Assembly (NCBI GenBank): GCA_040754495.1
Contig: JBFMCO010000061.1
Span: forward strand, 1-21,797
DNA from: Candidatus Micrarchaeota archaeon
Lineage (GTDB): Archaea; Micrarchaeota; Micrarchaeia; Anstonellales; Bilamarchaeaceae
Direction: 5' to 3'
DNA length: 21,797 nt
The notes beneath the pieces are model-generated. The model saw nothing but the letters and a program-made list of their open reading frames with translations. It made no database searches and was not told the origin of the DNA. Each line of letters starts with the position of its first letter. Positions within the stretch are counted from its first letter, which is position 1. The position numbers were made by a program, and so were the translations under genes. Shown here in pieces: positions 192 through 20,058 of this stretch.

Positions 192-220
192 AAAAGTTTC
201 AAGTGAGGGGCATAGTCCGT
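192..220. repeat. Direct-repeat copy of the rnpB 3' end (att-like)
   Basis: 192-220 aaaagtttcaagtgaggggcatagtccgt vs 325-353 aaaagttggaagtgaggggcatagtctgt: 26/29 identical, with a 17-bp exact core (201-217 = 334-350). Confidence 0.9.
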
Positions 221-311
221 GAAAGGGGCTCTCCGGCCATTCTAATGCGTCCCCTTTCAGACCCCCACCTGAGATTTTGCCGAGCGCAGCGAGGCCAACA
301 ACCAGTTTTGA

Positions 312-334
312 TCCAACTTTTCCTAAAAGTTGGA
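312..334 (-). terminator. Perfect 10-bp hairpin immediately downstream of rnpB (terminator-like or REP-like)
   Basis: tccaactttt-cct-aaaagttgga abuts the 3' strand of P1. Terminator function is inferred from position only. Confidence 0.5.
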
Positions 335-644
335 AGTGAGGGGCATAGTCTGTCTTCTGTAGTTAGGCGGCATTTGACTAAGCGGCGCGAAAGCGCCTTG
401 CTCCGTCATCGGATAGGGAAACGTTCATTGGAACTTCGTTCCAAAGCTCCCAAAGCGCTTCGCGCTTTAGGATCGTTGCATCCCTCCGGCTTGCGCCTTC
501 GGGTATCGTTTCTGTACCGCTTCCCCGGCCCTTAAAACCGGATTATCCTCGCGGAGGACAGAACTTCCTCACTGAAAGGAACCTGCGGTTCCTTTCGAAC
601 CTCCCTTACGGAAGATTCACAGCGTGAGCCGCCTGCCCCTCACT
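335..644 (-). ncRNA. rnpB: RNase P RNA (archaeal, type M-like)
   Basis: On the minus strand: P1 AGTGAGGGGCA(644-634)/TGCCCCTCACT(345-335); P2 GGCGGC/GCCGCC; CR-I GAGGAAGTTCTGTC (570-557) pairs with CR-V ACAGAAGACAGACTA (360-346) to form P4 with the bulged U; P5 CTCCG/CGGAG; P7 GGATA/TATCC; P9 (541-525); P10/11 GGAAGCG/CGTTTCC; CR-II ACAGAAAC; GGAGCAAG; short P15 (397-384); CGCTTAGTCAAATG. Length is 310 nt and a TATA box lies upstream. Confidence 0.93.
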
Positions 645-667
645 CTGCAATACTTATGCCCGCTAGG

Positions 668-676
668 TAATTAAAA
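668..676 (-). promoter_or_regulatory. TATA box of rnpB
   Basis: TTTTAATTA on the minus strand, ending about 23 nt before the P1 5' end, the typical archaeal spacing. Confidence 0.65.
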
Positions 677-723
677 GGTGGTTTCCGGCCTTCAGCGCGG
701 AGCGCTGGAGGACTTGTGGCAAT

Positions 724-9095: not shown

Positions 9096-9853
9096 GGGTT
9101 TGAGATGGATATGCCATCCTCTCCAAAATCGAAGCCGTAGATGCCCCCCTTAATCCGGCTGTTCCTCATCTTCACCACTTCGAGAGTGCGCTGGGTGTCC
9201 TCGCCTATCGAGGTCGCCTTCATCAGCACAATCCCGTCGCACGCGAATTCGCTCAGGGTGTCCCTGCTGTACCACTCGCTGCTGCGGGACACCTCAGACA
9301 CGAGAAGGGTGCAGATGCCTTTCTGCCCCAGCAGCTTCACCAGGTCCACCATTATCTTGCGCACCACTATGCCGTCCCACTCCGGGGGCGTGGTTATCGG
9401 CGCGTTGCCGGAGCCGTAAATCAGCTCGTCCACGGGCGTCTTCTCCAAATCCACTACGCGCGAGCGCATCCGCGCGGAGAGGACCATGTACGTTATGGAA
9501 TCCACGACGAGGCGGTTCGGCTTGAATGTCTCGAGCACCTTCTGCATCTCGTCGAAAATCTGGCCGAGGCTCAGGCGCGATATGGAAAGTATCCTGAGCA
9601 TGCCGTCCTTCTCAAGTCCCTCAAGGTCCCAGCCGAACTGCGACGCCTGCTCCCTTATCTTCTCCTCACGCTCCTCGAAGGAGATATAGAGGCCCCTCTC
9701 CTTGTGCTTCCTGCAGCCTTCGGCAAGGAACTGCAGGGCGAGAATAGTCTTCCCGGTCCCCGCAGCGCCGGAAACCAGCACTACCGAGTCCATAGGAATG
9801 CCGCCGCCTACCAGGGGATCGAGCCCGGGGATACCCGTCTTGACTTTGCGCAT
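9092..9853 (-). CDS. Single-domain KaiC/RAD55-like ATPase (253 aa)
   Basis: TGIPGLD..GGGIP, Walker A GAAGTGKT, SFEE, Walker B VVDS, EFACDGIV, KMR arginine finger. The true start is the ATG at 9853. Confidence 0.92.
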   Translation of the reverse strand: MRKVKTGIPGLDPLVGGGIPMDSVVLVSGAAGTGKTILALQFLAEGCRKHKERGLYISFEEREEKIREQASQFGWDLEGLEKDGMLRILSISRLSLGQIFDEMQKVLETFKPNRLVVDSITYMVLSARMRSRVVDLEKTPVDELIYGSGNAPITTPPEWDGIVVRKIMVDLVKLLGQKGICTLLVSEVSRSSEWYSRDTLSEFACDGIVLMKATSIGEDTQRTLEVVKMRNSRIKGGIYGFDFGEDGISISNP

Positions 9854-9875
9854 AGCACGGACTTCTTTAGGAAAA

Positions 9876-9881
9876 TTTAAA
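9876..9881. promoter_or_regulatory. Palindromic TTTAAA box centred between divergent KaiC genes
   Basis: Centre is about 25 nt from the minus ATG (9853) and about 27 nt from the plus ATG (9906). Confidence 0.55.
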
Positions 9882-9905
9882 AGGCACACCTTGGAGATTG
9901 GACGC

Positions 9906-11630
9906 ATGGCCAGGAAGAAAGCGCCGGCGGAGACGCAGCCCAGCGAAAGCTCGGAAACAGGGATAGCCGAGCTCGATGAGGCGCTGGGCGGGGGCATCCC
10001 GAAGGGAAGCGTGGTCCTGCTGGCAGGGCCGTCCGGAAGCGGAAAGACGATTCTTGCGTTCCAGTGGCTTTTCAACGGCGTGCGCAAAGGCGAGAACTGC
10101 CTCTACCTTTCCCTCACCGAGCCTCTTTATAAGAGCGTGAAGAACCTGGAGACGATGGAGTTCTACGACAGGGAGGCGCTCGAGGACGAGCGGCTGAAGA
10201 TAATAGACCTGAGAAACGTCATCGGCGACAAGGGGCTTGACGCGGACAGGGTCCTCGAATTCATAGAGAGCGAGGTCGAGAAGAACGACGTGCGTAGGCT
10301 GTGCATAGACTCGGTGACGGGCATAGCCTACCACCTTGACGACAAAGGGAAGATACGGAGGTTCATTTTCGAGCTGGGAAAGCTGCTCGGGACGCTCGGC
10401 TGCACCAGCATCCTCACAAGCGAGGTCACGGACTCCGGGCACTACTCCGTCTACGGGGTGGAGGAGTTCATATCGGACGGGATATTGAGGCTCGACCATG
10501 CGCCGAACGGCAGTCTCAGGCAGAGGAGGCTCCAGATAGTGAAGATACGCGGCCGGGGATACAGCACCGATGAGCTGCGCTTCAGGATAAAGAAGGAGGG
10601 CATAGCAGTATTGCCGAGGTTCACGGCCCCGCAGGGCGCGCAGGCGAGCGCCAGGAGGCTCTCCACCGGCAATGCCATCCTGGACGACATGCTCTCGGGT
10701 GGCGTCCTGGCAGGCTCCACAACCCTCTTGACGGGCACGACGGGCACGGGCAAGAGCATTTTCTGCATGCAGTTCGTAATGGAGGGGCTGAAGAGGGGGG
10801 AGAAGTGCCTTTATGTCGGCTTTGACGAGCCCATGGCGGAGATGATGAGGAACGCCCGGAGCGTAGGCTGGGATTTCGAGCAGTACAGAAAGAGCGGGAA
10901 GCTGCTCTGTATGTGCACGCATCCGGCCGACAGGTTCCTTGAGGAGCACCTTGGCGGGATAAAAAGCATCGTCGAAAAGGATGGTGTCGGGAGGTGCGTC
11001 GTGGATTCCCTGTCCTCGCTCTCATACAGCTTTAGCGAGGAGAAGTATTTCGCTTTCGTCAAGTCGCTGAACGACTACCTCAAAAGCCAGGGCGTCACGG
11101 CCTTCTTCACAATTGCCTCGGCTTCCGGGGCAAAGCAGCTGAGGGAGGACCAGGTGACCGTCACCATGGACAATCTCCTCATGCTGAGGCAGGTGGAGAT
11201 GGAAGGCAGGCTCACGTTCGTGCTGAACGTCATGAAGACCAAGGGCAGCACGCACAGCAAGGAGATGCGCCGATACAGTATTACGAAAGGCGGGATAAAC
11301 ATAGGGCAGACGCTGGCCGGCTACGAAGGCATCATGACCGGCGTGACGAGGAAGGTGTCGGCCAGCACCGAGGACCGGATAGCCGACGAGTTCATGCGTT
11401 TCATAGGCCCCATGGGCCAGAAGGCGTTCGACGAGCTTTCCGGGAGAGGCCTTTCCGAGCAGAGCGTTTCCGAATACATAGACTCGCTGGTCTCGGACGG
11501 CATCATGAGGCAGACCGAGGCGGAGGACTTCAGGGCCAGCGTGATGAGGCATTTCGGAAAGGAGAAGCCCCGGAAGGAGGAGCCGGGAGAAGAGAAAAAA
11601 GGCTTCTTCGAGAAGCTGTTCGGAGGATAG
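9906..11630 (+). CDS. kaiC: Double-domain KaiC-like ATPase with C-terminal extension (574 aa)
   Basis: CI: GPSGSGKT, CIDS, GVEEFISDGI, KIRG. CII: GTTGTGKS, VVDS, and VLNVMKTKGSTHSKEMRRYSI, which resembles KaiC AINVFKMRGSWHDKAIREFMI. Ends with an extra helical domain and KKGFFEKLFGG. The symbol denotes the family, not a clock function. Confidence 0.88.
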   Translation: MARKKAPAETQPSESSETGIAELDEALGGGIPKGSVVLLAGPSGSGKTILAFQWLFNGVRKGENCLYLSLTEPLYKSVKNLETMEFYDREALEDERLKIIDLRNVIGDKGLDADRVLEFIESEVEKNDVRRLCIDSVTGIAYHLDDKGKIRRFIFELGKLLGTLGCTSILTSEVTDSGHYSVYGVEEFISDGILRLDHAPNGSLRQRRLQIVKIRGRGYSTDELRFRIKKEGIAVLPRFTAPQGAQASARRLSTGNAILDDMLSGGVLAGSTTLLTGTTGTGKSIFCMQFVMEGLKRGEKCLYVGFDEPMAEMMRNARSVGWDFEQYRKSGKLLCMCTHPADRFLEEHLGGIKSIVEKDGVGRCVVDSLSSLSYSFSEEKYFAFVKSLNDYLKSQGVTAFFTIASASGAKQLREDQVTVTMDNLLMLRQVEMEGRLTFVLNVMKTKGSTHSKEMRRYSITKGGINIGQTLAGYEGIMTGVTRKVSASTEDRIADEFMRFIGPMGQKAFDELSGRGLSEQSVSEYIDSLVSDGIMRQTEAEDFRASVMRHFGKEKPRKEEPGEEKKGFFEKLFGG

Positions 11631-11631
11631 G

Positions 11632-13245
11632 ATGGGGTGGAGCATAACGAAGAAGCTCGTACTCGCCTTCCTCGCAGTCGGACTCATCCCCCTCATAAGC
11701 GCCGAGCTCCTTAGCATCGGAATACTTAAGGAAGAGCTTGAATCGGCGATAGAAAAAACGATGGGATACGTCGTGGAAAGCGCAGAAGCCGAGACCTTCT
11801 CGTATTTTGATTCCGTCGCGAGCAGGACGGTCGGTTTCACTTCGGACGGCCTGATAAGGGACGAACTGGCGGCGATTGAGGGAGGCAACAACTATTCTGC
11901 CGCCGCGCTCAACAATCATCTTTCGAGGAACAAGCTGCCCCTCGTGCCGTCCCTTGCCGGTATAATGCTGATAGGCAGGGACGGCACGGTCGTTTCCGCC
12001 TCGGACCCGAAAGAGATAGGCAAGAACGCCTCGGCCGCCGCCTTCTTCAGGAACGGCAGCCAGGGCGCATTCATGAGCGGCATCGGGAACACGGGATTCT
12101 TCGGCGTGAGCAACGGCTTCGTGGTCTCCGCGCCCGTGACCGACAGGCTCAGCAACGAACCCCTCGGCGTGCTTGCGAATTTCTTCGACACGCGGGAGCT
12201 GGAAAGACGCCTATCAAGCGTCCATACGGAAGACTACGAGGAGATAGTGTCCGTGAGGGACGTGGAGGGCCAGAAGGTATATCTCGTGGATTCGGGCGGC
12301 ACCGTGGTAATCCCGGCCGGCGGCGGCACGGCATACAGCGAGCCCGTCCGGGCATGCCTGGAGGAGAAGGAGGACTTCGTAGGCGAATACACGAACCACC
12401 TGGGGCAGGGAGTCATAGGGGCAGGCGGATGCTTCCCCTCGAGGGGCCTGGTGGTCGTAGCGGAGATAGATGCTGCCGGGGCAAGCCGTCCCATAGAGCG
12501 CTCCTACGTCCTCCTCGGGTATGTCACGCTCTTCTTCGCGACATTCGTCATACTGGTGGGGCTGATACTCTCGAGCAGCATCTCCAGGCCCGTCAAGGAG
12601 CTCACCGCCGCCATCGAGCGGATAAGCAGGGGGGGCATGGATGCCGAGGTCCCTGTATGGCTCAAGCAGAGCGGGGACGAGCTCGGCAGCCTCGCGCAGG
12701 CTTTCGACAGGACGATTGTGAGCCTGAAGATGGCCATACGGCAGTCCGCGCCCGAGCTCGTGAAGGACAAGGAGAGGCTGAGAAGCACGCTTGAGGAGAC
12801 CGAAGCTGCCACGGAAACGCTGTCGGCGATATTCGACAATGCCCGGGACGGCCTCGTGCTCATAGACGACAAGGGAATGATCGTCCGCGCCAACAAGGCA
12901 GTCGAGATGCTGTGGGGGTTCTCCCCGCGCGAGATTGAGGGCAAGATGCTGGACGAGCTGGACATGCTGGGCCAAGAGACCCGGAAACGCCTGCTCGACG
13001 CGTTCTCGCGGAGGATGAAAGGCGAGAACGTCCCGCCGTATGAAGTCGAGGTAATCAGGAAAGACGGCGTGGTAGCCTACGCGGAGGTGCGCGCTTCGGC
13101 AATTATCAAGGACGGCACCCTGAAGGGCGAGGTCGTCCTGCTCAGAGACCTGACTGATGCCCCGACTATGCGCAAGGCCGGGAGCGTGGCTGCAAGCCCG
13201 GACTCAAAGAAGGGCCATAAGGGCGGCGGAAGGAGGAAGCGCTAG
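11632..13245 (+). CDS. Membrane sensor: TM-Cache-like-TM-HAMP-PAS, no output domain (537 aa)
   Basis: Two TMs flank a Cache-like region (GIMLIGRDGTVV; VVSAPV; VYLVDSGG). HAMP (RPVKEL...DELGSLAQAF), one PAS ending RDLT, and a basic tail follow. Confidence 0.85.
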   Translation: MGWSITKKLVLAFLAVGLIPLISAELLSIGILKEELESAIEKTMGYVVESAEAETFSYFDSVASRTVGFTSDGLIRDELAAIEGGNNYSAAALNNHLSRNKLPLVPSLAGIMLIGRDGTVVSASDPKEIGKNASAAAFFRNGSQGAFMSGIGNTGFFGVSNGFVVSAPVTDRLSNEPLGVLANFFDTRELERRLSSVHTEDYEEIVSVRDVEGQKVYLVDSGGTVVIPAGGGTAYSEPVRACLEEKEDFVGEYTNHLGQGVIGAGGCFPSRGLVVVAEIDAAGASRPIERSYVLLGYVTLFFATFVILVGLILSSSISRPVKELTAAIERISRGGMDAEVPVWLKQSGDELGSLAQAFDRTIVSLKMAIRQSAPELVKDKERLRSTLEETEAATETLSAIFDNARDGLVLIDDKGMIVRANKAVEMLWGFSPREIEGKMLDELDMLGQETRKRLLDAFSRRMKGENVPPYEVEVIRKDGVVAYAEVRASAIIKDGTLKGEVVLLRDLTDAPTMRKAGSVAASPDSKKGHKGGGRRKR

Positions 13246-13256
13246 GGTGGGGTGCG

Positions 13257-15372
13257 ATGGAGCTAAGGCTGAAGATTGTCCTCGGATTCTTGTTCGTGAT
13301 TTTTCTCACCGGGCTCGTGTGGTACTCGACGATTTCCGCCCTCGTCCTCTCTTCGGAGCAGCTCGGCGAGGAGGCGAGGCAATGCCTGGCCGCCGGAAAC
13401 ATGGAGGAGCGGCTTGGCAGGGTGGAGGGGATGGTAGCGGAAGCTGAAGGGCGGGGGCAGTACGCCCTTTTTGCTGCCCTGATTGCGCTGGCACTCGGCG
13501 GCGTGCTCGGGCTCATCCTTGCCAGCTCGATTCTCGGGCCAATACGGCAGCTAACCGAGGTAATAGAGAGGATAAGCCGGGGCGAGAGGGGCGTGGAGAT
13601 ACCGGCGCGGCTCAAGGAATCCCCGGACGAGATAGGGGCTCTCGCGATGGCGTTCGACAGAACGATGGTGAGCCTCAAGATGGCGATGGGCCAGACGGCT
13701 CCCGAGCTCAAGAGGCTCCTTGAGGAGAAGGCGGCGACTGAAGCGAAGCTCCTGCGCCTGAACGGCCTGCTTGCCGCGATGAACGAAATCAGCGCCGAGG
13801 GCCTCCGAACAAGGGAGCCCCGGCGGCTCTATGAGCTTGCGTGCAGCGCAGCGGTCCAGACCGGGCCTTACGTATTCGCATGGGTCGGACTTGTTGGGGA
13901 AGACGGGCATGGTCGAGCCTGCCGCCTGCGCAGGGAAAGAGGAGGGATATCTTTCCGGGATAAGAATCTCCATAGACAAAAAGAAGCCCGAGGGCAGGGG
14001 CCCGACCGGAACCGCCATACGGGAAATGCGGCCTTTCATATGCAACGACATCCGCAGCGATGAGCGGATGCTTCCGTGGAGAGATGGGGCGCTCAGGAGG
14101 GGGTTCCAGTCGTCGGCTGCGTTCCCGCTCGTAGCCGGGGGGAAGTGCCTTGGGACGATTAACTTATATTCCGGCGAGGCCGGGGCTTTCCGTGATGACG
14201 AAGTACGCGTCCTGGCCTCACTGGCATCCAACCTGACGCTTGCGGTGGAGAGGGCCAGGGAAGCGAGCCGGGTGGAGGAGAGCGAAAAGCGCTACCGGGA
14301 CATGCTTGATGGCATGCTTGAGGGCTGCCAGCTCATCGGAAGGGACTGGCGCTACGTTTATGTGAACGATGCCGCCGCCCGGCACGGCCGCGCGGCAAAA
14401 GAGGAACTGCTGGGCAGGAAGATGTGGGAGGCGTATCCGGGCATCGAAAAAACCGGCATGTTCCGATTCCTGAAGCGCTGCATGGAAAAACGCAGTCCCC
14501 ATGTCATGGAGAACGAATTCGCCTTCCCGGACGGGACGAAAGGCTGGTTCCAGCTCAGCATACAGCCGACGCCGGGGGGCATTTTCATTCTTTCCCAGGA
14601 CATAACGGAAAGGAAAATGGCCGAGAACGCGCTGAGGGAGAGCGAAGAGAGGTATAGGACGCTCGCCGAGGCGGCGCACGACGTGATTTTCACGGTGGGC
14701 GAGGATTACCGCGTTACTTATATCAACGAGACAGGCGCTAATATGCGGGGCCTGCCGAGGGAAAAGATAGTCGGGCAGACGCTGGACGAGCTGTTCGGCC
14801 CTGATGCGGTCGCAGGGCAGAAGGAGAATATATTGGAGGTATTCCGCAGCGGGAAGCCGCTGTACAACGAGCGCATCATGCATTTCCCGGACGGCGACAA
14901 GTGGCTTGCCACCTGGCTCACCCCCCTTAAGAGCAAGGCGGGCGGGGTTTCCCTGGTAATGGGGTTGTCCAGGGACGTAAGCGAACGCAAGGTGGCGCAG
15001 TACGCCCTCATGGCCGAGAAGGAGCTCGTTGAAAGGTTCCTGAACATGGCGGGGTTCATGGTCGTCGTATTGGACAAGGACGGAAAGGTAGCGAGGATAA
15101 ACGGGAAGGGGTGCAAGGTCCTTGGCCGTTCCGAAAAGGATATCCTAGGGAAGAACTGGTTCGACAATTTCATCCCAGCGCCCATGAGGGCGAAGATGCG
15201 CGCGATCTTCAGGAAAATCATGAAGGAGAGGGGCAGGGGCGGCTTCGAGTTCTACCAGAACCCCATCCTCACCAAGGACGGCCGCGAGGTGCAGGTGAGA
15301 TGGCACAACGCAGTTGTCAGGGACCGCAGGGGAAGGCCCCTCTGGAGCATCAGCGCCGGGGAAGAACCTTGA
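13257..15372 (+). pseudogene. Membrane sensor: TM-TM-HAMP-GAF-PAS-PAS-PAS, split by a +1 frameshift at about 13896-13907 (real or artefact)
   Basis: ORF 13257-14063 matches a GAF start up to AWVGLVGEDG. ORF 13831-15372 continues the same GAF from MVEPAACAG (GRGPTGTAIRE, SSAAFPL). Removing one G joins them into about 704 aa. Confidence 0.85.
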
Positions 15373-15412
15373 ACGGCGATTCGTTCAAGTACTTTCCCGA
15401 GCTTCTGTGCGG

Positions 15413-16195
15413 TTAAGGGCGGGGAAGATGCCGGCTGATTTTGCCGCCTGAAGCGGCGTACATGAGGCCTGCGATGCCAAGCCAGACATATGATACTACA
15501 TAGAACAGCGTCACGGGATGGCTCGGCGTGTATTCCTCATAAGCGGCAAGGCGCAGGTACCATATGTCCCCGGCCGCGAGCAGGAGCAGCGAAAACCCGA
15601 AAATGAGCAGTATGGGCTGGAACTCCCTTCCTCCCAGGAAGCTGATGAGGAGCGCGGCCATCATCGAAAGCAGCAGGGTGTCGCCGAGCACGTACCCGGC
15701 ATTGATGAGGTTCTCCTCCAGCGAGGCGTCGCTGGCGGCCACGATGTCCTTGGTGTAGAGGAAAGAGCCTGCGCCGACCACGAGAAAAACCAGCAGGGCC
15801 GCGGTTGCGGTCTTTGCGGCCGGAACCGCCCTCTCGAAACCAAGGTAAAGCGAGTACAGGAACGGCACGTAGCCTGCCAGCCAGAAGAAATCCGCGGGCG
15901 AGGCCGAGGGGGCGTCTATCCCGAGCACTATCTCGTAGAAAGACCATATTCCTTCAGCCAGCGTCCACATGGCCATGGCAAGCGCAAGGTAAAAGAAGCT
16001 CACCCACGGCTGGGACGACCTCATCGATGCCGCATGCGCCCGGTAGAGGGCGAGAGCTGCGAAAGCCGCCGACAGGGTGGAGAGGATGTCGAGCAAGTTG
16101 CCGTAGAATTCCGCCTGCGAGAGCAGGAGATGGGCCGTGATGAGGAGGATGGAGAACGCCAGGCCGGAAAGGAGATAGGGCGTGCTGCGGTCCAT
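15413..16195 (-). CDS. Stand-alone multi-TM protein resembling membrane sensor input domains (about 260 aa)
   Basis: About 7-8 hydrophobic segments with motifs WTLAEGIWSFYE, SPADFFWLAGY, YVLGD and AAGDIWY, typical of N-terminal membrane domains of kinases/cyclases. No cytoplasmic domain. Confidence 0.75.
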   Translation of the reverse strand: MDRSTPYLLSGLAFSILLITAHLLLSQAEFYGNLLDILSTLSAAFAALALYRAHAASMRSSQPWVSFFYLALAMAMWTLAEGIWSFYEIVLGIDAPSASPADFFWLAGYVPFLYSLYLGFERAVPAAKTATAALLVFLVVGAGSFLYTKDIVAASDASLEENLINAGYVLGDTLLLSMMAALLISFLGGREFQPILLIFGFSLLLLAAGDIWYLRLAAYEEYTPSHPVTLFYVVSYVWLGIAGLMYAASGGKISRHLPRP

Positions 16196-16221
16196 TATCT
16201 GGATTTCCCGTGCCCAAGGCA

Positions 16222-16227
16222 TTTAAA
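16222..16227. promoter_or_regulatory. Palindromic TTTAAA box between divergent genes
   Basis: About 30 nt from both the minus ATG (16195) and the plus ATG (16256). Confidence 0.5.
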
Positions 16228-16255
16228 GCTTCTGAAAGAAATGGACGCTGATAAG

Positions 16256-16828
16256 ATGGATTCAGAGTCCCTCAAAGCAGCGCTCGTGAAAGCGCTGCAG
16301 AGCCACGCCGGCGGGGTAATCATGATGGAACTGCCGGCTGAGGATTACTTCGAGGCCAACGCGGCTGCGGTCGCCCAGCTCGCGGAAGACGGCTTCGAAG
16401 GCGTGTACATAAGCTTCCAGAGGCCGTTCGGAAACGTGTCCGGCATGCTGAAGCAGAGGGGGGTCGACACCGGAAAGATTATTTTCATAGACGTAGCGAC
16501 GGCCCTCGGCGAGGAGGAGCACGAGAAGCACAGCCGGTGCATACACATATCCCGGGAGGTAAGCGTGGATGAGCTCGTGAGGGCGGTCCACACCGGCCTG
16601 CGCCGCCTCGGCGGGAAGAAAAAGTTCGTGTTCATAGATTCGCTCACGACGATAACGCTCCACAAGCCCCTATCGGAGAGCATGAGATTCTACGAGTTCC
16701 TCGTGAGCACGGCCAAGGTCGGCGAGAGCGGCCTCGTTCTAGTGCTCAGCGTCGCGAAGGAACTCAGGCAGAAAAGGTTCATAGAGGACGTCGCAGTCCA
16801 TGCGGACGAGGTAATAGGGGTGCAGTGA
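16256..16828 (+). CDS. Inactivated KaiC/RecA-fold protein (about 190 aa; alternative start 16241)
   Basis: GVYISFQRP, KIIFID, Walker B-like FVFIDSLTT and ADEVI are present. The P-loop position reads ELPAEDY (no GKT). Confidence 0.75.
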   Translation: MDSESLKAALVKALQSHAGGVIMMELPAEDYFEANAAAVAQLAEDGFEGVYISFQRPFGNVSGMLKQRGVDTGKIIFIDVATALGEEEHEKHSRCIHISREVSVDELVRAVHTGLRRLGGKKKFVFIDSLTTITLHKPLSESMRFYEFLVSTAKVGESGLVLVLSVAKELRQKRFIEDVAVHADEVIGVQ

Positions 16829-17382
16829 TGGCGGATATCAAGAAACTGGCCAGGGAACTGGCCGAGGCGGACGAAGGAGCCGTTATCCTCGTCGAAACCC
16901 CCATAGAGAACGCACCGGAGGTCGGGCTCGAGGCCATCCGGGCCATGGTGAAGAGGGGGTACACCGGGATCATCGTCTCGGCCAGCAGGCCGTACACCAA
17001 CCTGGTCAGCGTCTATGCGAAGAACGGCATAGACACGAAAAAGGTCTTCATAATAGACTGCGTGACCAAGGCGAGCAGCGTGGAGCCCGAGGAGGCCGCC
17101 AACGTCGTCTACCTGGACAGCGTCTCGGACCTTACCACCATGTCGCTCGCGATAAACAACGCCATGGAGAGCGTGAAGGGCGGCAAGTTCATCTTCCTCG
17201 ACTCCATAAGCACGATGCTAATCTACAACAGGCCGGACATCTTCGCGAAATTCGTTCATATAATGCTGACCAAGATGAGGGTGGGCAACGTGAGCGGGAT
17301 ACTCATCTCGTTCGAGAGCGAGAACAACAAGGAGGTCCGGGCCGAAATCGTGCAGCTCTGCGACAAGGTTATTAAGGTGTGA
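16828..17382 (+). CDS. Inactivated KaiC/RecA-fold protein, paralog of the upstream gene (184 aa)
   Basis: GIIVSASRP, KVFIID, FIFLDSISTML and CDKVI are present. The P-loop position reads ETPIENA. TGATG coupling to the upstream gene. Confidence 0.78.
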   Translation: MADIKKLARELAEADEGAVILVETPIENAPEVGLEAIRAMVKRGYTGIIVSASRPYTNLVSVYAKNGIDTKKVFIIDCVTKASSVEPEEAANVVYLDSVSDLTTMSLAINNAMESVKGGKFIFLDSISTMLIYNRPDIFAKFVHIMLTKMRVGNVSGILISFESENNKEVRAEIVQLCDKVIKV

Positions 17383-17403
17383 AGCGCACCATAGTAGGGG
17401 AAG

Positions 17404-20058
17404 ATGGCATCCGACGCTGATTCTGGGGGGATGTTCAGGCGCATAGTCGAGTCGGCACGCGAGATGATATTCGTGGTCCGGCCGGACGGCAGGATAGAAT
17501 ACGCGAACCCGTACGCCGTCTCGCTCATGAAAAGGCGGCCAGGCGAAATCAGTGGAAAGAGCATAGGCGAGCTTTTCGCCCCGGAAGCGGCAGGGGGCTT
17601 CCAGGAGATACTCAGGGAGGTGTCCACGAAGGGCGAGGCATCCTACAGGGAGGACAAGGTGCATACCCCTGCCGGCGACATCTGGCTCGGAAGCTGGCTG
17701 ATTCCCATGGGGAAGGGCGGGAAAGTCGCAGGCTTCGCAAGGGACATAACAGCGATAAAGGATGCCGAGGCGTCCCTGGAAGAGAGCCGCAAGAGGTATC
17801 TGACGATGTTCGAGGCCTCGCCGGAGGGCGTCGTCCTGCTTGACAGGAATGGGTTGATACTGGATGCCAACGCGCGCCTCAAGGAGTGGCTGGGATATGA
17901 GCCTTCCGAGGCGATAGGAAAACCGCTCTCGGAGATGCCGTTCCTTCCGCCGGCAACGAGAGAGCTGCTGCTTTCCAGGCTCAGGGAGAGGGTAAAGGGC
18001 AGGGAGCTCGAGCCGGCCGACTTCGAGGCGGTGGCCAAGGACGGAAAGCACGTCTGGCTCAGGGTGAGCTCCAACCCGGTCAGGGACGAGCGGGGGAGGA
18101 CCCAGGGGGTGCTGGCGGTCGTAGCCAACATAACCGACAGGAAGGAAGCGGAAATGACGCTCGCGGAGAGCGAGGAGAGGTTCCGCAGGATGTTCGAGGA
18201 GGGGACCGTCGGCATTTCCATTGTAGGCCTCGACGGCAGGTTCGCCAAGGCGAACAACGCGCTGTGCGGGATGCTCGGCTACAGCGAGGCGGAACTCAGG
18301 AAAATCGCGTTCGGGGAACTGACGCACCCGGATGAGAGGGAAAGGGACATAGATGCCGCGAAGCAGATGGCGGAGGGCAAGAGGCAGTCCTACCGGGTGG
18401 AGAAAAGGTACATCCGCAAGAGCGGGGAAACGCTATGGGCATCGCTCAACGCCTCGCTCATGCGCGGAACCGACGGAAAGCCCAAGTATTTCCTCTCGGT
18501 CATAGAGGACATAACAGAGCGGAAGGCGGCGGAGGAGGCCCTCAGCGAAAGCAAGGAGACGCTCAGGCAGCTCGCGGACGCATCCTTCGAAGGAATCGCA
18601 ATAACCGACAACGGAAAGATACTGGCCGTCAACAGGACGCTCGAGGCCATGCTTGGCCGCGGCGGCTCCGAGCTGGCCGGGCGCAACGCGGCCGAGTTCA
18701 TAGCCCCCCGCTCAAGGAAAGATGCCCAAAGAAGGCTGGACGAGGGAGGGGAAGAGCCGTTCGAGTGCGCATGCATAAGGAGCGACGGCTCGGAGATAGA
18801 AACCGAGGTCAGGAGCAAGGCCATAGCATATCATGGAAGGAAGGTAGATGTCATCGTCATGAGGGACGTCACCGAGGCCAAGGCGGCTCGCAAGGCGCTC
18901 GCGCAGAGCGAGGAGAGGTTCAGGCTCATAGTCGAGCGGAGCAGGGATATCATCATGCTGACAGACCCGCGCGGCACCATCATCTACCTCAGCCCTGCCT
19001 GCAGGGAAATCCTCGGCTACCATCCCTCGGACCTTGTGGGGAAAGAGATGATAATGGTGCACCCGGACGATGCCCCGATGGTCAGGAGGGCCATGATGAG
19101 CGCCGCCTCGGGGCAGAGCGTCTCGCTCGAATACCGGATAGCTGCCAGGGACGGCACCGCCAGATGGGTCTCGCACTCGCTCGGGCCGATAAAGGACGAT
19201 GGCAAGGTCATCATGGTCGTCGGCGTCATGCGGGACATCACCGAGCGCAGGGGCGCAGAGGAAGCCATGAGGGAGTCCAGGGACGTCTATGCCGACCTCG
19301 TAGAGAACCTCAATATAGGGATATTCCGCTGGAGCGCCGGCGTGAGCGGGCGGTTCCTCCAGGTGAACCAGGGGCTTGCCGACATGTTCGAGGCAGGCTC
19401 GAAGGACGACCTCATGCGGATGCCGCTTGTCGAGCTGCATGCGAACCACTCCGACAGGCGGATGGTGCTCGACAAGCTCATGAGGGAGGGGTGCCTCAAG
19501 GGCGAGGAGGTGGAATTCGTCACCCTGGGGGGCAGGCGCTTCTGGGGCTCGCTCACCGCGGTCAAGAAGGTCGGCAGGGACGGGGGCCCGTATTTCGACG
19601 GAATCATCGAGGACGTGACTTCAAGGAAGCTGGCCGAGCGGATGATGCTCGAGGAGACGGGGAAGGCGAAGGAACTCATAGACATAGCCGACGAGATGAT
19701 AATAGTCATCGGGGCCGACGAGCGGGTGGAGCTGGTGAACAGGAAGGGATGCGGTATTCTGGGCTATCCCGAGGCCCAGGTGGTCGGAAAGAACTGGTTC
19801 GATTCTTTCATACCCGAGAGGAACAGGGAGGCCATGAGGGAGGTCTTCAGGCAGCTCATCGATGGGAAGGCCACCGCCCCGGAGTTCTACGAGAATCCCG
19901 TCCTGGGAAAGGGCGGGAAGGAGATGAACGTGAGATGGCATAACACTGTCCTGCGGGGAAGCGGCGGGAGGATTACGGCCACGCTCAGCTCGGGGACGCT
20001 GACAGGGCGGCCGGCGGAGGGGCGCAGGGCCGCCGCGCCGGGGCATCAGGCTTATTAA
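17404..20058 (+). CDS. Cytoplasmic protein of seven tandem PAS domains, no output domain (884 aa)
   Basis: Six PAS/PAC units end in RDIT, ANIT, EDIT, RDVT, RDIT and EDVT with ERK-type linkers. A seventh GKNWFD-type PAS ends the protein. Confidence 0.9.
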   Translation: MASDADSGGMFRRIVESAREMIFVVRPDGRIEYANPYAVSLMKRRPGEISGKSIGELFAPEAAGGFQEILREVSTKGEASYREDKVHTPAGDIWLGSWLIPMGKGGKVAGFARDITAIKDAEASLEESRKRYLTMFEASPEGVVLLDRNGLILDANARLKEWLGYEPSEAIGKPLSEMPFLPPATRELLLSRLRERVKGRELEPADFEAVAKDGKHVWLRVSSNPVRDERGRTQGVLAVVANITDRKEAEMTLAESEERFRRMFEEGTVGISIVGLDGRFAKANNALCGMLGYSEAELRKIAFGELTHPDERERDIDAAKQMAEGKRQSYRVEKRYIRKSGETLWASLNASLMRGTDGKPKYFLSVIEDITERKAAEEALSESKETLRQLADASFEGIAITDNGKILAVNRTLEAMLGRGGSELAGRNAAEFIAPRSRKDAQRRLDEGGEEPFECACIRSDGSEIETEVRSKAIAYHGRKVDVIVMRDVTEAKAARKALAQSEERFRLIVERSRDIIMLTDPRGTIIYLSPACREILGYHPSDLVGKEMIMVHPDDAPMVRRAMMSAASGQSVSLEYRIAARDGTARWVSHSLGPIKDDGKVIMVVGVMRDITERRGAEEAMRESRDVYADLVENLNIGIFRWSAGVSGRFLQVNQGLADMFEAGSKDDLMRMPLVELHANHSDRRMVLDKLMREGCLKGEEVEFVTLGGRRFWGSLTAVKKVGRDGGPYFDGIIEDVTSRKLAERMMLEETGKAKELIDIADEMIIVIGADERVELVNRKGCGILGYPEAQVVGKNWFDSFIPERNREAMREVFRQLIDGKATAPEFYENPVLGKGGKEMNVRWHNTVLRGSGGRITATLSSGTLTGRPAEGRRAAAPGHQAY

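Follow-up and report, generated by a model that had tools for sequence, protein, structure and literature searches.

The minus strand of the 21,797-nt window (i.e. the whole stretch of Micrarchaeota DNA that was analysed) carries a genuine RNase P RNA gene at positions 336–643, whose product we read as a catalytic RNA with a type-M-like core typical of its clade, into which probably mobile hairpin repeats have been inserted and are tolerated. From comparison of sequences and predicted folds we put the probability of this reading at about 0.72. The locus would encode the catalytic RNA of an RNA-protein RNase P, and two kinds of small hairpin-forming repeat would have entered outer, permissive sites of a core of roughly 205 nt: a two-hairpin element of 49–53 nt, after the J12/13-type motif and before the P11 3' strand, and a 23-nt palindrome in P3. 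Both inserts would remain in the mature RNA as tolerated expansion segments pointing away from the active site. The identity and fold of the gene are demonstrated, as are the dispersal of the two-hairpin element and its patchy distribution.

A genuine RNase P RNA gene with a reduced core

The gene is 308 nt long with its 5' end at 643, and the Rfam model RF00373 (RNaseP_arch) covers it over its full length (model positions 1–288, 71.4 bits, E 1.1e-19), in agreement with an earlier note that had called it an archaeal RNase P RNA. The score lies below the curated gathering score of RF00373 (84 bits), and an Rfam scan of the window at the gathering threshold returned nothing; the match surfaces only when hits are reported by E-value. 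The inserts probably cost the gene its Rfam score, since members of the genus without inserts, which are ∼200–225 nt long, reach 96–107 bits; the majority of the insert-bearing RNAs in the genus also fall below the cut-off. Standard pipelines will therefore miss many such genes. The match is the only one to an RNase P RNA in the source genome (labelled G000; 1.63 Mb, 80% complete), and the fold is much stabler than that of shuffled sequence (z −6.7). Matches to the RNase P proteins Pop5 (60.7 bits), Rpp29 (77.1 bits) and Rpp21 (38.6 bits) are present in the same genome, together with a weak Rpp30-like match (22.3 bits, under its cut-off). The organism, whose gene neighbourhood the earlier note had described as DPANN-like, is indeed a micrarchaeon, as judged from the relatives of the neighbouring NurA gene. 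A TATA-like box read from the sequence, CUUUUAAUUA (664–677, minus strand), lies ∼24–33 nt upstream of the 5' end, and a TTTTAAT/TTTATAA-type box is found at a similar distance upstream of most of 28 RNase P genes from the genus; we take the box to be a putative promoter.

Helices were placed by hand from the Rfam alignment and from genus alignments, and are given here in window coordinates on the minus strand: P1 (643–634/345–336), P2 (633–628/371–366), the base of P3 (624–621/573–570), P4 (565–557/354–347), P5 (556–553/404–401), P7 (548–544/415–411) and P10/11 (524–518/423–417). A covariation alignment of relatives, proposed earlier as a check on the fold, gave 92% standard pairs for this helix model in 28 sequences from the genus, with 50 of the 97 pairs changed on both sides; in the control, where the 3' partners were slid by 1–3 columns, pairing fell to 41–48%. 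CR-I (557–571) reads GAGGAAG followed by the P4 5' strand AG-U-UCUGUC, which pairs with 354–347. The P4 pseudoknot formed by CR-I and CR-V, with its bulged U, comprises 8 pairs that are 100% paired in the 28 sequences, two of them changed on both sides; P4 is UCUGUC/GACAGA here and UCUGCC/GGCAGA in the majority of the genus. CR-II (J11/12; GUACAGAAACGAUA, 504–517) matches the Rfam consensus, and CAGAAACG within it is invariant in the 28 sequences. P12 (503–482) is short, with 6 bp, a symmetric internal loop and the GCAA cap that had been read from the sequence before (CCC/GGG, GAA/GGA loop, GGC-GCAA-GCC). It is followed by the CR-III or J12/13-type motif AUGCAACG (474–481), which is conserved in the genus as GGGAUG(A/C)AACG immediately after P12. 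A check by eye (for P12, against the Kt-7 pattern) found no K-turn in P12 or in the inserted element. Other families of the order retain a long P12 with a GAUGAUGA...GAGG region.

The core thus keeps P1–P5, P7, a single hairpin at the P8/P9 position, P10/11, the short P12 and a stub of P15. Only one hairpin (525–541; 5 bp capped by the conserved 7-nt loop UUUAAGG) stands between P7 and P10/11, and the Rfam alignment deletes one of P8 and P9, which bears out the type-M-like architecture without P8 that the earlier note had proposed. The surviving hairpin is named P9 by the type M convention; in two relatives from the order, Rfam places the same UUAAGG-looped hairpin at P8. A single P8/P9 hairpin is the rule in the genus, and one other family (represented by G038) has both. 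In the genus alignments the stems of this hairpin covary around a loop of the form UYUAAGG. The loop is conserved throughout the genus, and two further families of the order share it; it may be a contact or protein-binding site.

P15 (397–384) consists of 5 bp closed by a UUUC loop (GGCGC-UUUC-GCGCC), and L15, P16, P17 and P6 are absent: in the Rfam alignment the model's 37-nt P15–P17 interior shrinks to 6 nt, and J5/7, where the P6 5' strand would be, is only 4 nt. The stem is 92% paired in the alignment, with four of its five pairs changed on both sides. The earlier reading of a short, UUUC-capped P15 and of missing P16 and P17 is therefore correct. However, a short P15, with 1–6 nt replacing the P15–P17 interior, is present in all 10 of the order relatives aligned (10/10), which speaks against its being the mark of a discrete subtype. 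Judged on these alignments, the reduced type-M-like architecture appears to be the usual one for this clade of Micrarchaeota.

Hairpin repeats at the P13/P14 position and in P3

The inserted two-hairpin element (423–475, minus strand) comprises hairpin A (472–448, 11 bp) and hairpin B (444–428, 7 bp), each with a GAA triloop in the form C[GAA]G. Read 5' to 3', AUGCAACG (481–474) is followed by the hairpins (472–428) and then by the P10/11 3' strand (423–417). The earlier note had described two GAA-triloop hairpins between P12 and the P10/11 3' strand and had placed them where bacterial RNAs carry P13 and P14; both statements hold, the pair lying between a J12/13-type motif and the P11 3' strand. 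An extended P12 is ruled out as an explanation, since the conserved GGGAUGCAACG directly follows P12 as it does in insert-free relatives, and the hairpins come only afterwards. We also rejected AUGAACG, just past the insert, as a second J12/13 motif, because a UGA-type end belongs to the consensus of the element.

Among the 41 RNase P RNAs of the genus, which come from 40 genomes, five have the insert (G000, G017, G018, G022 and one of the two copies in G015). Across these five carriers 96.7% of its positions in helices are paired, and both sides have changed in 8 of 18 pairs; this covariation is no proof of selection on RNase P function, since the copies outside RNase P genes keep their pairing too. 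The carriers are scattered on a tree built from 203 core columns of the RNase P RNA itself: at least four changes are needed and a single clade is rejected (AU p 0.0004), although recombination or repeated loss could mimic several gains on such a tree. G022 has the insert and its sister G044 (support 100/99) does not; G044, G051 and G047 all lack it beside the carriers G022 and G017, and G004 and G007 have the same P12 sequence as this RNA, yet no insert. The undescribed structural subtype suggested by the earlier note is not borne out by this distribution, as the insert defines no clade and is a member of a dispersed element family with many copies outside RNase P genes. Probably mobile hairpin inserts, on a type-M-like core that is typical of the clade, take the place of the "new subtype".

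We followed the family with two covariance models, R2, built from the five copies at the P13/P14 site, and R1, built from modules at the P18 site only (see below). R2 scores 78.3 bits on the window copy (423–475), a circular result as that copy is in its training set. Full-length copies outside RNase P genes score 30–55 bits (top 54.7), with per-genome E-values of 1e-8 to 7e-17, and R2 has matches in 30 of the 40 genus genomes at E <= 0.1 and in 37 of 121 genomes of the order at E <= 1e-4, spanning 15 of 41 genera. The family consensus is CGAnCUUnAA-stem-C[GAA]G-stem-GAGnG-linker-GGAAC-GAA-GUUCC-UGAnC, and the element measures 49–53 nt at the P13/P14 site. The two-hairpin family is dispersed and is probably mobile. 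Rfam assigned no known RNA family at the loci with repeat copies, and no link of the copies to tRNA genes was seen, with a tRNA nearby at 1 of 27 loci.

A second copy in the source genome (C50:4901-4960, locus L128) lies over the stop codon of ftsZ, which was identified by its Pfam Tubulin and FtsZ_C domains. Hairpin 1 of this copy has as its 5' arm the last six codons of ftsZ plus the stop (DLEVLG*), and the element is followed by a 21-nt repeat of the end of the gene with synonymous differences only. A sequence arrangement much like this one is found in G018 (L112).

In ∼19 other RNase P RNAs of the genus a similar hairpin pair occupies the bacterial P18 position, after P15 and before the P4 3' strand, and ∼24 of the 41 genus RNAs have a module at one site or the other. 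R2 picks up ∼10 of the P18-site modules in RNase P RNAs, and R1 picks up the P13/P14-site copies at 11–17 bits, the window copy weakly (10.7 bits); across the whole source genome R1 gave chance-level matches only (E > 1). From these cross-matches we read the modules at the two sites as one element superfamily. Two RNase P RNAs of the genus (L059 and L051, from G003 and the first copy in G015) have ∼50 nt with two hairpins at the P8 position, after P7 and before the UUUAAGG hairpin; in G015, a genome with 6% contamination, the two RNase P RNA matches lie on separate contigs. In seven genus genomes (L054, L055, L058, L070, L071, L073 and L074) the 5' end of the Rfam match cannot pair with the 3' strand of P1, and these genes may have more inserts in P1–P3 or start further upstream.

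We examined the flanks of 30 copies and found that the 5' arm of a copy is more similar to that copy's own downstream flank than to the flanks of other copies (mean 6.2 vs 4.9; 0 of 5000 permutations). For the five RNase P copies this does not hold: the own flank ranks 7–23 of 30, and no clear duplication of the target is seen around them. A search for a Y1 transposase found none in the source genome (80% complete), and within the genus 9 of 40 genomes have the enzyme, its presence not evidently related to copy number; mobilisation by IS200/IS605 is thus unsupported.

The second site is P3, which is bifurcated, as had been claimed: hairpin P3a (618–597; 9 bp, GUAA loop, from the minimum-free-energy fold) is followed by P3b (596–574; 10 bp, GCA loop), a 23-nt palindrome. 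P3b is contained in a repeat copy (572–605) that is 94% identical to G000:C17:9119-9153 over 35 nt. P3a has a counterpart in G018, where a similar hairpin (CCUUCC-GCAA-GGGAGG) occupies the same spot; for P3b none aligns in the other 40 genus RNase P RNAs. AGGAACC-N(2-5)-GGTTCCT palindromes occur four times in the source genome, as against none for a control pattern, and two of the four are located shortly ahead of start codons. The lack of a counterpart in the genus, the C17 copy and the palindrome repeats together indicate that the P3 branch is a species-specific repeat insertion. It therefore fails as a subtype trait, P3b being confined to this genome and copying a repeat that the genome has at another locus. 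At C12:5837 and C46:32042, palindromes with the pattern GAAAGGAACC-NN(N)-GGTTCCTTTC, each preceded by AAAGGAAGAT, lie directly upstream of a Shine-Dalgarno-like site and start codon; they may be related to P3b and serve as an operator or as a hairpin in the 5' UTR.

Repeats also surround the gene. The trailer (192–335, minus strand), which lies outside the modeled mature RNA, holds a hairpin element at 296–333 and then a near-copy of the gene's 3' end: a blastn comparison with the genome itself showed that the last 26 nt of the gene (325–350) recur with 92% identity at 192–217, 133 nt downstream. In G022 and G044 the gene tail is likewise repeated ∼135 nt downstream. The trailer hairpin element (..GGTTTTGATCC-AACTTTTCCTAAAAGTT-GG) has covarying copies on contigs C59, C5, C50, C4 and C58. 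On C59 (11904-12215, minus strand; L077), tRNA-like 5' and 3' halves with acceptor, D-arm and T-arm lie ∼250 nt apart, separated by hairpin repeats that include the trailer element, and ARAGORN called no tRNA at this locus even with long introns allowed. Positions 1–125 of the window are 100% identical to the ends of C65, C32, C56, C10 (both ends), C46 and C19, and are a multi-copy repeat that breaks the assembly just past the RNase P trailer. Just upstream of the putative promoter, positions 685–788 are a repeat too, found at C33:5568-5671 (97%) and C53:5886-5962 (100%); the matches on C32 and C28 are shorter. Further along the window, at 9702–20058, a KaiC-like ATPase gene is followed by genes for HAMP/PAS and multi-PAS sensors, a signalling cluster unrelated to the RNase P finding.

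Tolerated passengers or new arms

GNRA tetraloops are classic tertiary-contact loops. The dispersed copies mostly have C[GAA]G loops, with a GNRA loop on hairpin 1 in 4 of 32, whereas in RNase P-borne copies hairpin 1 has a GNRA loop in 15 of 24 and, at the P18 site, hairpin 2 has one in 16 of 19. These counts come from non-independent copies, and R2 is biased towards GAA on hairpin 2. This enrichment hints at adaptation in some species, and the GNRA loops of RNase P-borne copies in those species argue against a purely passive role there. The window copy looks unmodified, since both of its loops are C[GAA]G, the form typical of the dispersed copies.

One alternative is that the mobile two-hairpin element has been recruited, species by species, as a new arm of the RNase P RNA at the P13/P14 and P18 sites, its GAA triloops then being replaced by GNRA loops that possibly make tertiary contacts; the window copy would be an early, unmodified stage. 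We regard this as tentative, with odds well short of even. If it were true, it would amount to present-day, traceable growth of a ribozyme by capture of mobile hairpins.

A somewhat less probable claim is that selection has made the hairpins a functional part of the RNA, namely an archaeal counterpart of P13/P14 (and, at the other site, of P18) that braces an S-domain deprived of P8 and of the long P12; wherever they came from, the enzyme would now need them. The exact topological position of P13/P14, the pairing maintained across the five species, the GNRA enrichment at both hairpins and the modules carried by more than half of the genus RNAs would all fit such a role. Against it, close relatives do without the insert (G044, G051 and G047, as well as G004 and G007), so that the inserts are dispensable in very similar RNAs. 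Moreover, the window copy has unadapted GAA/GAA loops, the pairing is a property of the element, being kept by the copies outside RNase P genes as well, and a loop of the L14 or L18 type would have no P8 on which to dock. We therefore consider this claim unlikely for the RNA described here.

A third possibility is that the inserts are intervening sequences cut from the precursor, for example by the archaeal splicing endonuclease of broad specificity, leaving the minimal core as the mature RNA. The tRNA-like gene on C59 that looks interrupted by ∼250 nt of hairpin repeats would be a parallel. However, when the insert boundaries were scanned for bulge-helix-bulge motifs, four of the five copies had no strict motif and none lay at equivalent positions, and we accordingly rejected a bulge-helix-bulge intron, there being no consistent motif at the boundaries of the five copies. 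As the element folds into two self-contained hairpins its ends would also not be brought together, and we hold excision to be improbable. That the gene is a decaying, repeat-riddled pseudogene, with tRNA 5' processing done otherwise, is hardly credible: the Rfam score below the cut-off and the repeats inside the gene and on either side of it would suit such decay, but the conserved regions are all intact, with a compensatory change in P4, the gene is the only copy found in the genome, genes for RNase P protein subunits are present and the inserts avoid the core.

The reading that we prefer, i.e. tolerated repeat insertions on a clade-typical core, has consequences beyond this gene. RNase P RNA is an ancient ribozyme whose outer helices define its structural types. 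In a single archaeal genus, helices at the positions of bacterial P13/P14 and P18 appear and disappear by way of a dispersed hairpin repeat; because helices can be gained and lost through the insertion of such repeats, structural "types" can be shaped by mobile DNA. That the inserts are copies of dispersed hairpin repeats suggests one way in which an ancient RNA can gain arms, and if they stay in the mature RNA and gain contacts they would provide a concrete mechanism by which large RNAs grow new ones.

Comparison with known systems

REP/BIME elements, MITEs and hairpin elements derived from IS200/IS605 are short palindromic mobile repeats. The two-hairpin element resembles them in being short, hairpin-forming, multi-copy and often located at gene ends, and in having stems that vary while staying paired. 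It differs from them in that no link to a transposase was found and in that some copies are followed by a repeat of the end of the interrupted gene, which is atypical of those families.

To our knowledge, the nearest precedent for the inserts is provided by the short repeats inside cyanobacterial rnpB (cited in PMC2858038). Vioque reportedly described such repeats in 1997 in heterocyst-forming cyanobacteria, as tandem heptamers that are said to be located in P12. The two cases are alike in that a short repeat found genome-wide lies within an outer helix of the RNase P RNA gene. They differ in that discrete two-hairpin modules occupy junction sites in archaea here, whereas tandem heptamers are involved in the bacteria. 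Our literature search for RNase P RNA combined with Micrarchaeota, DPANN or mobile hairpins, most subscription journals lying outside its coverage, returned no description of a Micrarchaeota RNase P RNA and none of hairpin elements inside an archaeal RNase P RNA.

Type M RNAs are defined by the absence of P8, P16, the P6 pseudoknot and the P15 recognition loop (PMC4919922; PMC2858038). The RNA described here likewise does without P8, P16, the P6 pseudoknot and the P15 substrate-recognition loop, and has genes for archaeal protein subunits alongside it. However, type A and type M share a double K-turn in P12 that binds L7Ae (PMC5499556), and the stub-like P12 of this RNA has no such double K-turn; the extra hairpins, in turn, are absent from type M. 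The host also differs, as Micrarchaeota stand outside the groups in which type M has been described (Methanococci and Archaeoglobus). Type-M-like reduction is therefore wider than thought, and for the same reason the likeness may be convergent: the RNA resembles type M in layout and is not a member of it.

In bacterial type A RNAs, P13 and P14 occupy the same secondary-structure position as hairpins A and B, i.e. after J12/13 and before the P11 3' strand, and bacterial P18 occupies the same position as the P18-site modules of the sister species, between P15 and the P4 3' strand (PMC4919922). The bacterial L13 and L14 tetraloops make contacts with P12 and P8, whereas both loops here are GAA triloops and there is no P8 to serve as a receptor. 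There is also no sequence homology with the bacterial helices; in their place these archaea have a side-by-side hairpin pair that comes from a dispersed repeat and is present in some species only.
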